A stretch of 64,000 nucleotides of DNA from Gemmatimonadota bacterium (lineage in GTDB: Bacteria; Gemmatimonadota; Gemmatimonadetes; JACCXV01; JAHWKZ01): assembly GCA_025937815.1 (NCBI GenBank), contig JAICQP010000001.1, positions 3,891-67,890 of the forward strand. Direction: 5' to 3'. Under the pieces are notes generated by a model that worked only from the letters and a program-made list of their open reading frames with translations, did not search any database and was not told the DNA's origin. Shown here one piece after another: positions 11,087-34,074 of the stretch. The stretch's first letter is position 1, and the number at the start of each line of letters is the position of its first letter. Made by a program: the position numbers and the translations under genes.

Positions 11087-11162
<76 letters not shown>

Positions 11163-11370
11163 GCTTCCAGGAACAGACGATTGCCACGGTCCGAAATGGA
11201 TTTGTGGTAAATGCCTGATCGGCTGTTGGCTGAATCAAGGTGGCAATACGGGGGCCAAAGAGTGGTAATGCGGTTCCAAAGAAATGCCCGCGGAGCTATT
11301 GAGGATGGATCCCCCGCCAGGGTAGAGTCTGACATCTGTAAAGAAGAGGACTTTCATGGAAGGAGGGTCT

Positions 11371-11526
11371 GTGGAGAAGAAGCCTTACGCACCTCCGAGG
11401 GTCTTTGATCTCGGCACGGTCAGAGATCTCACTCATTCCACTGCCGAGGAAGACAAGTGCAGCGGGAGCGGTGACATCCGCACCGTGCAACAGATCAGCC
11501 CGAACTACAGCTTCGACTGCCCGTAA
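11371..11526 (+). CDS. small Cys-containing peptide, paralog 1 (candidate RiPP precursor / secreted peptide)
   Basis: 51 codons from GTG 11371 (GGAAGGAGGG RBS); an in-frame ATG at 11356 would add 5 aa. Product (M)EKKPYAPPRVFDLGTVRDLTHSTAEEDKCSGSGDIRTVQQISPNYSFDCP; three near-identical paralogs nearby; terminator hairpin downstream. Confidence 0.65.
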   Translation: MEKKPYAPPRVFDLGTVRDLTHSTAEEDKCSGSGDIRTVQQISPNYSFDCP

Positions 11527-11560
11527 GGCAAGACGAACGGCGCTTTGGAAATGATGACAT

Positions 11561-11594
11561 GAGCCGGGGCGAAAGTCCCGGCTCAGTTATTTCC
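11561..11594 (+). terminator. rho-independent terminator after peptide paralog 1
   Basis: GAGCCGGGGC-GAAAGT-CCCGGCTC hairpin followed by AGTTATTTCC. Confidence 0.6.
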
Positions 11595-11741
11595 TGTCCT
11601 CACTGACGGCGCCCACCTGAGCGGCAATTTTTTAAACGTTCGAGTTAGCCACCTTACAAAGACATACGATTTTCATACCCGTAATCGCCCCCGATATATG
11701 GATGATTTCCTAGGGTATGGTACACTCAAGGAACTGAGGTA

Positions 11742-11781
11742 CCACGGCGTGGAAGCAGGCTTCCCACGGCGTGGAAGCAGG
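11742..11781 (+). promoter_or_regulatory. tandem 18-bp direct repeat, each with 11-bp palindrome CCACGGCGTGG (candidate operator), downstream of a TGgTACACT extended -10-like element
   Basis: CCACGGCGTGGAAGCAGG at 11742-11759 and 11764-11781 (22-bp register), ~40 nt upstream of paralog 2 start; -10-like ATGGTACACTC at ~11716-11726. Confidence 0.45.
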
Positions 11782-11822
11782 AGGACCGGTAAGCAAACCA
11801 TCAACTCGACGGAAGGCTGGCA

Positions 11823-11978
11823 ATGGAGAAGAAGCAGTACGTGACCCCCAAGGTTCTTGAACTTGGTACCGTGAAACAGCTCACCGAAACCACTCCGGAA
11901 GCCGACAAGTGTAGCGGCAGCGGCGACGTGCGAACCGTCCAGGAGCTGAGCCCCAACTACAGCACCGACTGCCCGTAA
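11823..11978 (+). CDS. small Cys-containing peptide, paralog 2
   Basis: ATG start with GGAAGG RBS; product MEKKQYVTPKVLELGTVKQLTETTPEADKCSGSGDVRTVQELSPNYSTDCP (51 aa). Confidence 0.65.
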   Translation: MEKKQYVTPKVLELGTVKQLTETTPEADKCSGSGDVRTVQELSPNYSTDCP

Positions 11979-12009
11979 TCCGGGCCGAACTCCCTATGTT
12001 GGATGGATG

Positions 12010-12043
12010 GAGCCGGAACGAAAGTTCCGGCTCTTCCATTTCC
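12010..12043 (+). terminator. rho-independent terminator after paralog 2
   Basis: GAGCCGGAAC-GAAA-GTTCCGGCTC hairpin then TTCCATTTCC. Confidence 0.6.
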
Positions 12044-12290
12044 AGGCCCCGTCCTTCTCCATGACGATCATGACCCACATGCTGCGGAAACTTCTACAAC
12101 CTTCAGGAAGCCATGGCATCTGTCTTGACGTAGGCGGAAGGCGGTCGCGAACGGCACCTCGCGGCTCTCGCGCGGCCGAATTCTCCACGAACTTCCGATG
12201 GGTGTTGGCCGCCTTTAGGTCTCTAGTGCATCATGATTCCGGTTCTTCGACGGCTGCGGCCATCCCCGTGGCAATCCGGCGATTGGTGAC

Positions 12291-12328
12291 TTGAAAGCGA
12301 AACGAGCCGGGAGATTTCTCCCGGCTCG
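12291..12328 (-). terminator. rho-independent terminator after paralog 3 (minus strand)
   Basis: CGAGCCGGG-AGAAATCT-CCCGGCTCG hairpin followed on minus strand by TTTCGCTTTCAA. Confidence 0.55.
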
Positions 12329-12359
12329 TTCGGATACCGTTCCTGTGTGCAGTGTCGGG

Positions 12360-12515
12360 CTACGGGCAGTCGGTGCTGTAGTTGGGGCTCAGCTCCTGAA
12401 CCGTCCGCACGTCTCCGCTGCCGCTGCACTTGTCGTTCTCCGGCGTCGTCTCGGTGAGCTCCTTGACGGAGCCCAGCTCCACGACCTTCGGGGTTTCGTA
12501 CGGCTTCCTGCTCAT
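12360..12515 (-). CDS. small Cys-containing peptide, paralog 3
   Basis: C-terminal 51 codons of six-frame ORF 12360..12668; ATG with GGAGGAG RBS; product MSRKPYETPKVVELGSVKELTETTPENDKCSGSGDVRTVQELSPNYSTDCP. Confidence 0.65.
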   Translation of the reverse strand: MSRKPYETPKVVELGSVKELTETTPENDKCSGSGDVRTVQELSPNYSTDCP

Positions 12516-12677
12516 CCGCTCCTCCTCACCTCGGGACCTCGCGTTACTTGCCGTGGAACCACTGTGCCAGAGTGTACCATGAGCAGCGGACGCTCTCAAT
12601 GTCTCCGGGGCCGTTTCGGGTATGGAAATCGTCTGATTCGATGAGCGAATGCGAAACGCCGAGGCCAAAGTGAGGCG

Positions 12678-12713
12678 CCCGAAACGACGGAGCCGGGGCG
12701 TTGGCCCCGGCTC
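12678..12713 (-). terminator. rho-independent terminator after paralog 4 (minus strand)
   Basis: GAGCCGGGGC-CAACG-CCCCGGCTC hairpin followed on minus strand by CGTCGTTTCGGG. Confidence 0.5.
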
Positions 12714-12743
12714 AGGTCGTCATCCGGACTGCGTGCTCTTCGC

Positions 12744-12899
12744 CTACGGGCAGTCCGTGCTATAGTTCGGGCTTATCTGTTGCACGGTGCGGACGTCACC
12801 GCTGCCGCTGCACTTGTCTTCCTCGGCCGTCGTCCGGGTGAGCTCTCTCACCTTGCCGAGGTCGAATACCCTGGGAGCTACGTAAGGCTTCCTGCTCAT
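12744..12899 (-). CDS. small Cys-containing peptide, paralog 4
   Basis: Terminal 51 codons of long shadow ORF 12744..14093; ATG with GGGAGGGG RBS; product MSRKPYVAPRVFDLGKVRELTRTTAEEDKCSGSGDVRTVQQISPNYSTDCP. Confidence 0.65.
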   Translation of the reverse strand: MSRKPYVAPRVFDLGKVRELTRTTAEEDKCSGSGDVRTVQQISPNYSTDCP

Positions 12900-13103
12900 C
12901 ACCACCCCTCCCTTCTGGGATCTGGAGTATCGTCGGACCCCAGTGTACGGGACGCCGGTAGGGAACATCAATGGCATGGAGGTATGGAAAACTATTGAAG
13001 CTGGCGCGTTCCTTGTACGGCATGAGACAAATGACCGAAGATTGCCCGGCGATCGACCGCATGGAGTCGCAGTTGCACGCCAGCCCGCGTAGATTCGGCT
13101 CCG

Positions 13104-33276: not shown

Positions 33277-34074
33277 GTGGCCCAGCGCTTCGCTCTCAGC
33301 ACGAGCTTCGCCGACGTCGGCAGGCACCTCGACGTGCTCGAAGAAAAGGGACTCGGCGTCGAGGTGTCGCTATACGACACCGAGTGGCTGCTGGCGATCG
33401 ACCGCACGACCACGGTCCGGAAGCTCGGGGACGAGATCGCGGCCCGCGGGATCGAGGTCACCGTCCACGCGCCGATCTTCGACCTCAATCCCGGGAGCCT
33501 GGACCCCGTCATCCGCAAGCACACGCGCCGCTGCTGGGAGCGCGCCGTGGGAGTCGCCGGCGCGCTGCGCGCGCGCATGATCAACTTCCACACCTGCTTC
33601 CACCCCCTTCTTCCCGAGTCCACGTTTCCCGGGTGGCTCGCGCTTTCGCTCGAGATCTGGGAGCGGATCGAGGAGCTGACGGTCGACGCGGGGATGACGC
33701 TCCTCCTCGAGAACATGTTCGAGCCGACGCCCCAGGTGCAGCTCGACCTCCTCGCGCAGCTCGAGTCGCGGCATGCGGCCTTCACGCTGGACGTGGCGCA
33801 CGCCCATATCTACGGCGCCGTGTCGATCGACGCATGGTGGAGCCAGCTCGGCCCGGCGGTCGCCGAGGTCCATCTCCACGACACGGACGGCTTCTCGGAC
33901 GATCATCTACCGATCGGCGACGGCGCGCTCGACTGGCAGCGGGTCTTCGAGGACGTGTTCCGCAACGCCCCCGACGCGGTCAAGGTGATCGAGATGCCGC
34001 TGGAGGCCGGACTGGCGAGCTTGAAGCGGATCAAGTCGGCCGGGTACTCGGACCTGCAGCTGGAGCTCCTGTGA
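33277..34074 (+). CDS. sugar phosphate isomerase/epimerase (xylose-isomerase-like TIM barrel)
   Basis: TIM-barrel AP-endonuclease-2/XylA-like pattern (HAPIFDLN, LLENM, LHDTDG); start uncertain. Confidence 0.55.
   Translation: MAQRFALSTSFADVGRHLDVLEEKGLGVEVSLYDTEWLLAIDRTTTVRKLGDEIAARGIEVTVHAPIFDLNPGSLDPVIRKHTRRCWERAVGVAGALRARMINFHTCFHPLLPESTFPGWLALSLEIWERIEELTVDAGMTLLLENMFEPTPQVQLDLLAQLESRHAAFTLDVAHAHIYGAVSIDAWWSQLGPAVAEVHLHDTDGFSDDHLPIGDGALDWQRVFEDVFRNAPDAVKVIEMPLEAGLASLKRIKSAGYSDLQLELL

Follow-up and report, generated by a model that had tools for sequence, protein, structure and literature searches.

The 5' leader of one of four related peptide genes in the analyzed DNA (the whole 64,000-nt stretch, hereafter the window) contains a palindrome-bearing 18-nt sequence in two exact copies. 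Our tentative reading, to which we give not quite even weight, is that these repeats form a selected element of the transcribed leader that works through the RNA and affects how stable the mRNA of this gene (paralog 2) is or how well it is translated. The two copies are best explained as an old 22-nt tandem expansion within the paralog-2 5' leader.

Peptide paralogs and their genomic surroundings

Four monocistronic genes for 51-aa peptides were found within positions 11371-12899, in an array that sits between the Era gene and a tRNA cluster downstream of BipA. The genes and the hairpins that follow them are:

11371-11526, forward strand: paralog 1, with a GTG start.
11823-11978, forward strand: coding sequence of paralog 2, a 51-aa peptide with a lasso-type leader (orthologs 77-96% identical).
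12515-12360, reverse strand: paralog 3 of the peptide.
12899-12744, reverse strand: paralog 4 of the peptide.
11561-11584, 12010-12033 (forward strand, closing the paralog-2 unit), 12304-12327 and 12690-12713: terminator-like hairpin GAGCCGGGGCGAAAGTCCCGGCTC (repeat family D3/D4).

The N-terminal part of the paralogs matches the NCBIfam model lasso_leader_L3 (NF033521). Their C-terminal part is nearly invariant (DKCSGSGD...SPNYSxDCP). In lasso peptides, the ring usually has G, A, S or C at position 1 and D or E at positions 7-9 after the Thr-x end of the leader; the core peptide examined here departs from this pattern. Our search of the literature on Gemmatimonadota lasso precursors found nothing specific.

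No regulator gene adjoins the paralogs in the window, where their neighbours are BipA, tRNA genes, Era, Trm112 and RNase R. In related Gemmatimonadota MAGs, a single precursor lies within a cluster made up of a LuxR/GerE regulator, an Asn-synthase-like enzyme, the peptide and an ABC transporter. A tblastn search of the 64-kb window with the regulator, cyclase-like, ABC-transporter and downstream proteins of one such locus (L001) returned one distant ABC match and no biosynthetic cluster. The four precursors stand alone, and the 64 kb contain neither an Asn-synthase-like gene nor a dedicated gene for an ABC transporter.

A near-identical copy of the hairpin GAGCCGGGGCGAAAGTCCCGGCTC is located 30-45 nt past the stop codon of every paralog and ortholog. 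Its loop (GCGAAAG) is kept in distant MAGs (L001-L003 and L009) with peptides only ~65% identical, and this degree of conservation exceeds what a generic terminator needs.

Gene content and order vary among close relatives. The genome represented by L013/L014 has the order paralog 2, paralog 1, paralog 4, era, and another locus (L004, positions 707-1024), with a paralog 1 that is 90% identical, shows no paralog 2 within the 318 nt after paralog 1. In addition, a peptide homolog 70% identical to paralog 2 (P0017; L019 3001-3156 and L020 2567-2722) occurs in a phage-like context, a tight same-strand array of small overlapping genes beside a DNA methylase, from which the family promoter is absent. 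Two further clustered proteins, P0024 and P0026, were set aside as unrelated long proteins and clustering artefacts.

A promoter shared by the peptide family

About 20 upstream regions, taken from the window and from the fetched loci L001-L030, were aligned by anchoring them on the -10 element. They have a common layout: a tandem 10-nt box, ~19 nt, an ATTGAnn -35 element, 17-18 nt, a TAsAsT -10 element, and 40-43 nt to the start codon. The shared promoter architecture that had been proposed for the four paralogs in the first-pass annotation is supported by this alignment, which widens it to about 20 distinct family promoters from the window and many metagenomic loci. The elements upstream of paralog 2, and the counterpart upstream of paralog 3, are:

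11660..11679, forward strand: paralog-2 upstream box, AGACATACGA followed directly by TTTTCATACC, as tandem 10-nt units; candidate activator site.
11698..11703, forward strand: weak -35-like hexamer ATGGAT of paralog 2, aligned with TTGAnn of the other paralogs.
11718..11726, forward strand: extended -10 element TGg TACACT of a sigma-70-like promoter, its hexamer invariant in 9/9 paralog-2 leaders.
12550..12580, reverse strand: paralog-3 counterpart, ATGGTACACTC then TTCCACGGC; the promoter is shared, and a half-motif is present with no repeat.

The sequence ATGGTACACTC, previously reported upstream of paralog 2, was located at 11717-11727, with TG at 11718-19, the spacer nucleotide at 11720 and TACACT at 11721-26. 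The rest of that description was also borne out: the reverse complement of ATGGTACACTC precedes paralog 3 at 12570-12580 and is followed on the same strand by TTCCACGGC (12558->12550), GTAGAGT precedes paralog 1 (11322-11328), and GTACACT precedes paralog 4 on the minus strand (12948->12942). The accompanying statement that these elements lie at equivalent distances from their genes holds for paralogs 1 and 4, each with 42 nt from the -10 element to the start codon, but not for paralog 3 (55 nt) or paralog 2 (96 nt).

The putative -35 element of paralog 2 reads ATGGAT or TGGATG (3/6 matches to TTGACA). At 17-18 nt, TTGAGA, TTGAGG or TTGATG is found in its siblings and in the L013 ortholog (TTGAGA in L013), and a consensus scan before paralog 3 recovered TTGAGA-17-TACACT with TG. 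The TGn extension before the -10 hexamer is present in paralog 3 and in 6/7 paralog-2 lineages.

Most of the ~20 promoters carry the upstream box (A/C)TTCAAnnnn-TTTCCATACC, in which TTTCCATACC is nearly invariant ~19 nt before the -35 element. Within the window, the box was found only before paralogs 2, 3 and 4 (11660-11679; 12610-12629 and 12972-12991, the latter two on the reverse strand). Paralog 1 has a degenerate box only (GGTTCCAAAG). In other MAGs, the biosynthetic cluster encodes a LuxR/GerE regulator (L001 2037-2720), for which the box is a candidate site. The upstream box rather than the repeats is the best candidate for a family-wide regulator site.

Two further observations concern the fetched loci. 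In L001 (3965), L002 and L005, an ATG lies exactly 7 nt past the -10 element and in frame with the peptide (MKSQTTNPEGVVM-NKKPY...), and some annotations (P0006 and P0013) contain longer ORFs that begin at such a -10-proximal ATG; this may be a leaderless alternative start or a coincidence. Past the terminator hairpin in L001 (4170-4260), L002, L003 and L009, the sequence CCGTTTCyATGCCC...GCGTTACCTTGAT resembles the box plus the -35 element and may drive transcription of the ABC transporter gene.

By homology of the promoters, transcription of paralog 2 would start near 11732-11734, ~9 nt before the first repeat copy. The repeats are 3' of the -10 element, at about +10 to +49 relative to this putative start, which would place them in the transcribed leader.

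One palindrome duplicated once

The repeated region of the paralog-2 leader consists of:

11742..11759, forward strand: repeat copy 1 (CCACGGCGTGGAAGCAGG), the 5' arm of a predicted leader hairpin.
11760..11763, forward strand: junction CTTC, complementary to GAAG of copy 1, by which the predicted stem is lengthened; it matches neither repeat flank.
11764..11781, forward strand: repeat copy 2, of which the first 11 nt are the 3' arm of the predicted hairpin and the 3' part is single-stranded and nearly invariant.

The two copies of CCACGGCGTGGAAGCAGG are identical, start 22 nt apart, and both open with the perfect palindrome CCACG-G-CGTGG, as had been described. They are the sole direct repeat of at least 14 nt at a distance of 14-40 nt in the 64-kb window, and can thus be regarded as a real duplication. 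Palindromes of the 5-1-5 type are commonplace, with 146 in the window (2.3 per kb). Since a single palindrome of this kind is common and the repeat is unique, we conclude that one palindrome was duplicated once. The earlier picture of two palindromes on the same face of the helix therefore stands as a description of the sequence but not as two independent signals.

Neither GTGGAAGCRGG nor the repeat motif had a further match in the 64-kb window or in the non-paralog-2 sequence of the 30 fetched loci. A near-match at 33593-33604 was dismissed, as it is inside a long ORF and has no palindrome. A dispersed repeat (REP- or MITE-like) or a regulon motif was likewise rejected, because there is a single site in the 64 kb and elsewhere the motif occurs in paralog-2 leaders only.

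Origin and conservation of the leader insert

The paralog-2 clade alone has 96 nt between the -10 element and the start codon, ~53 nt beyond the family standard, and the repeats lie within the extra part. Downstream of them is the remainder of the leader:

11787..11822, forward strand: rest of the leader, A/C-rich and conserved (30-32/34 positions identical to orthologs).

This region includes the working Shine-Dalgarno (SD) sequence GGAAGG at 11811-11816. The entire short leader of the cluster-embedded genes has its homologue in the 3' part of the paralog-2 leader (AAGyAAACC...GGAAGG), and the repeats therefore belong to an insert of ~53 nt. Leaders of the paralog-3 clade are 55-61 nt long. 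The paralog-4 ortholog in L007 (1440-1500) has a 15-nt leader tandem duplication of its own (GCGTGATCTCAGAGA / GCGTGATCCCAGAGA); given this separate event, slippage expansion of leaders appears to recur in the peptide family.

Two protein-level explanations of the extra sequence were discarded. In the annotations of P0002 and P0016 the region is read as an N-terminal extension of the peptide; this coding reading was rejected, as the window has an in-frame TAA and L021 is frameshifted. All five substitutions between the window and L013 are non-synonymous in the frame that is sometimes annotated as coding. An upstream ORF was rejected as well: a short one begins with an ATG in L010, and the window lacks this ATG.

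For the analysis of conservation, paralog-2 leaders were collected by exact-protein look-ups, which gave the syntenic loci L010-L012, L024-L026 and L030, a more distant genome (L013 together with L014, which share an exact 127-nt overlap), short contigs (L027-L029) and L021-L023. L010 and L030, like L017, stem from farmland samples. Both repeat copies are kept in 9/9 distinct paralog-2 leaders, representing all six lineages. As a neutral yardstick, we used the identity at four-fold sites of Era in the same pairwise comparisons to the window:

L010: repeat block 39/40 identical; Era four-fold sites 0.79.
L030: repeat block 39/40 identical; Era four-fold sites 0.79.
L024: repeat block 38/40 identical; Era four-fold sites 0.77.
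L013: repeat block 35/40 identical; Era four-fold sites 0.52; P about 3e-6.

The repeat block is above neutral in all four comparisons (P 1e-3 to 3e-6), and the 15 nt between the -10 element and the repeats drift at the neutral rate. Because its identity is far above that of neutral sites, the 40-nt repeat block is, by this comparative measure, under purifying selection and functional.

These data bear on the possibility that the duplication has no function at all, being a slippage relic kept by an otherwise constrained leader (through its SD-like tract or its spacing) or simply by the youth of the lineages. Such a relic would suit a family whose leaders expand by tandem duplication elsewhere (15 nt in L007; 55-61 nt in the paralog-3 clade), and would also suit a hairpin that is without covariation and drifts in stability from -21 to -12.7 kcal/mol. 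However, two copies persist in six lineages, including L013, where neutral identity is 52%, and L021, where the genomic context is different; the repeat block, unlike the adjacent 15 nt, exceeds the neutral level; and no lineage has returned to a single copy, though tandem repeats delete easily. We regard a relic as distinctly improbable.

The different context just mentioned is that of L021-L023 (GCA_035253805.1, DATFBO010000025.1), in which a paralog-2-type gene with the repeat leader lies between hypothetical genes and a CitMHS transporter, with ~20 nt missing between the box and the -10 element. Gene and leader seem to have moved there as a unit.

A predicted hairpin and an unused SD-like sequence

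Two features of the leader RNA were recognized:

11742..11774, forward strand: predicted stem-loop of 13 pairs, with one G.G mismatch, one bulged C and a CAGG loop.
11780..11786, forward strand: SD-like sequence GGAGGAC, invariant in 9/9 leaders and 36 nt before the ATG (36-37 nt across the leaders).

The hairpin predicted for the window, spanning copy 1, the junction and 11 nt at the start of copy 2, has a folding energy of -21.1 kcal/mol (z = -2.95). A hairpin is predicted in every lineage (-21.1, -17.0, -17.8, -12.7 and -15.8 kcal/mol), in L027/L028 without the stem top (-12.7 kcal/mol, z = -0.7) and in L021 without the stem middle (z = -0.4). Of the pair cells across the leaders, 93% keep a base pair. 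At three pairs only one side differs (C-G to U.G), changes by which the RNA pair is kept and the dyad symmetry of the DNA is broken. The central mismatch positions vary freely, one of them being deleted in L024, and the CTTC junction also varies across orthologs (ATTC in L013 and L027). No two-sided compensatory change was found at any hairpin pair, and the covariation score is no better than that of shuffles. Covariation is uninformative for distinguishing RNA from DNA function in this case, because direct repeats pair both within and between the copies and two-sided changes are lacking.

We also looked for other RNA elements. The sequence that follows the hairpin, AAGCAGGAGGAC, has no U-tract, and a terminator scan was empty there, which gives no sign of an attenuator or terminator at this point. 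A second helix proposed by RNAalifold in the 3' half of the leader was dropped as poorly supported. Rfam gave no support for a riboswitch either: with the window at the gathering threshold and positions 11150-13050 at E <= 5, the matches were confined to tRNAs and two chance-level ones elsewhere.

No ATG, GTG or TTG occurs within 18 nt downstream of GGAGGAC. In 6/9 leaders this sequence is the strongest match to a generic anti-SD (-10.3 kcal/mol; the host's own anti-SD may differ), and in L010, L012 and L027/L028 a match stronger than GGAGGAC is present near the 5' end. Equally, GGAGGAC may serve ribosomes as a standby site or be what is left of the ancestral SD.

The most invariant stretch of the leader, consisting of the right half of copy 2 plus GGAGGAC (11768-11786), is outside the hairpin. 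As the best-conserved bases are not part of the stem, it may be the sequence rather than the structure that is read, and the reader may also be a DNA-binding protein.

A reader acting on the RNA could be a CsrA-like or other protein, or a small RNA, that binds GGA-containing purine tracts and thereby controls paralog-2 translation. Multi-site CsrA targets carry spaced GGA motifs, and the paralog-2 leader has a spacing that resembles theirs, with 4-5 GGA motifs over 70 nt (GUGGAAG twice, CAGGAGGAC and the SD GGAAGG), the last of which overlaps the SD; the strong sequence conservation outside the stem would fit such a target as well. Yet copy 1 has its GGA motifs inside the stem and not in the loop, which is CAGG, the motif is tied to no other genes in the 30 loci, and no such protein or small RNA was identified. 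We consider a target of this kind highly unlikely.

The repeats as a DNA operator

The first-pass annotation had interpreted the palindromes as the binding site of a dimeric regulator controlling at least paralogs 2 and 3. This claim did not hold up: the repeats are probably transcribed, are found in paralog-2 orthologs only, have dyads that decay, and lack a second target. Upstream of paralog 3 there is only a half-site-like CCAYGG, which is itself variable (CCATGGC and CCATGGA in L010/L011). It had further been expected that the palindrome would be enriched upstream of other genes and conserved in orthologous loci; there is no enrichment elsewhere in the window or in the 30 loci, but the repeat block is conserved in the orthologs.

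A narrower version can still be formulated, in which a regulator occupies the duplex at about +10 to +49 and thereby stops RNA polymerase from clearing the promoter or elongating at paralog 2. It could bind as one dimer per palindrome, or it could be a protein that reads the direct repeats GTGGAAGCAGG 22 bp apart. Several properties of the site agree with this: dyad symmetry in the window is perfect, with centres 22 bp apart, the block is under purifying selection, and the core of copy 2, GTGGAAGC, is invariant in 9/9 leaders and partly outside the RNA stem.

Against it, the symmetry on which a dimer would depend is poorly kept. Strict Watson-Crick palindrome pairs number 10/10 only in the window, falling to 9 in L010 and L030, 8 in L013, L027 and L024, and 5 in L021. 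Copy 2 has TCACG in most lineages, the core of copy 1 varies (GTGTAAGC in L027 and CCGGAAGC in L021), and L024 lacks the central G of copy 1, by which both the half-site and the repeat spacing are shifted by 1 bp. Moreover, the motif recurs neither in the 64-kb window nor in the non-paralog-2 sequence of the 30 loci, no regulator gene adjoins the paralogs in the window, and paralogs 1, 3 and 4 have the promoter without the site. For this last reason, the repeats cannot be the common control element of the family. Taken on both sides, an operator is an unlikely explanation.

Proposed mechanism and implications

On the RNA-level reading that we tentatively prefer, transcription would start from the family-wide sigma-70-like promoter, with its upstream box, weak -35 element and extended -10 element (TGgTACACT). 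The segment from copy 1 through the junction to the 11th nucleotide of copy 2 would then fold as one stable stem-loop near the 5' end of the mRNA, and the remainder of copy 2 would run into the strong SD-like GGAGGAC, which has no start codon behind it. The conserved A/C-rich spacer would lead from there to the weaker working SD and the ATG. In such an arrangement, the 5' stem-loop and the unused SD, as a docking place for ribosomes, would adjust in cis how stable the paralog-2 mRNA is or how well it is translated, relative to the three siblings with short leaders.

A broader picture may be drawn, which we put forward as a possibility with the odds rather against it as a whole. Soil Gemmatimonadota would carry several orphan lasso-like precursors under a common activator box, and the dose of each variant would be set post-transcriptionally by leader inserts specific to the lineage. 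In paralog 2, the insert would represent a composite stabiliser of a new type, made of a duplicated-palindrome hairpin and an unused SD; or else, in a likewise undescribed arrangement, a dedicated regulator would switch this variant only, with the repeats as its single-target operator. To our knowledge, no mRNA-stability element has been described in Gemmatimonadota, and we know of almost no experimentally established regulatory signals in this phylum.

If the RNA-level reading is true, paralogous precursors of one natural product would owe differences in expression level to their leaders, and the repeat site would be a small cis element in Gemmatimonadota. The family promoter (box, -35 and -10 elements) and the terminator hairpin offer handles for precursor discovery and for heterologous expression of the peptides. 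The repeat itself is a local feature of a single gene and of modest general interest.

Comparison with known systems

Bacterial mRNAs are known to be stabilised by 5' stem-loops and by the STAB-SD element (review PMC7509114, citing Emory 1992, Hambraeus 2002, and Agaisse & Lereclus 1996). Like the leaders of E. coli ompA and B. subtilis aprE and ermC, the paralog-2 leader has a predicted stable hairpin near the putative 5' end of a monocistronic mRNA (PMC7509114), and its hairpin, like theirs, is non-coding, without a U-tract, and conserved with the gene. It differs from classical 5'-terminal stabilisers in being further in, at ~9 nt from the putative start (~3 nt in L024). In contrast to the ompA, aprE and ermC stabilisers, its stem was born of a tandem duplication of a palindrome, shows no covariation, and is found in uncultured Gemmatimonadota.

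With the STAB-SD of B. thuringiensis cryIIIA, the paralog-2 leader has in common a strong SD-like sequence in the 5' UTR that is remote from the start codon and has none directly behind it (Agaisse & Lereclus 1996, cited in PMC7509114). In Firmicutes, however, the known element counteracts the 5'-to-3' decay carried out by RNase J, and the distance from GGAGGAC to the start codon is shorter in paralog 2.

The arrangement of two dyad sites on the same helical face just past the -10 element is also reminiscent of the lac O1 roadblock and of paired operators of the TetR family. Unlike these, the paralog-2 dyads are not maintained in orthologs, concern a single gene with no regulator gene nearby, and have a spacing that shifts by 1 bp in one lineage.

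A further comparison is with the cluster-embedded precursors of the LuxR/GerE MAGs, with which paralog 2 shares the upstream box, the -35 element and the -10 element. The four genes of the window differ from them in lying away from such a cluster, and paralog 2 differs further in having the repeats added downstream of the shared promoter. Taken together, the paralog-2 leader resembles the 5' stem-loop stabilisers and the STAB-SD element by functional analogy, not by demonstrated membership in either class; within a phylum that has been little studied, it adds one more example to a kind of cis element already known.
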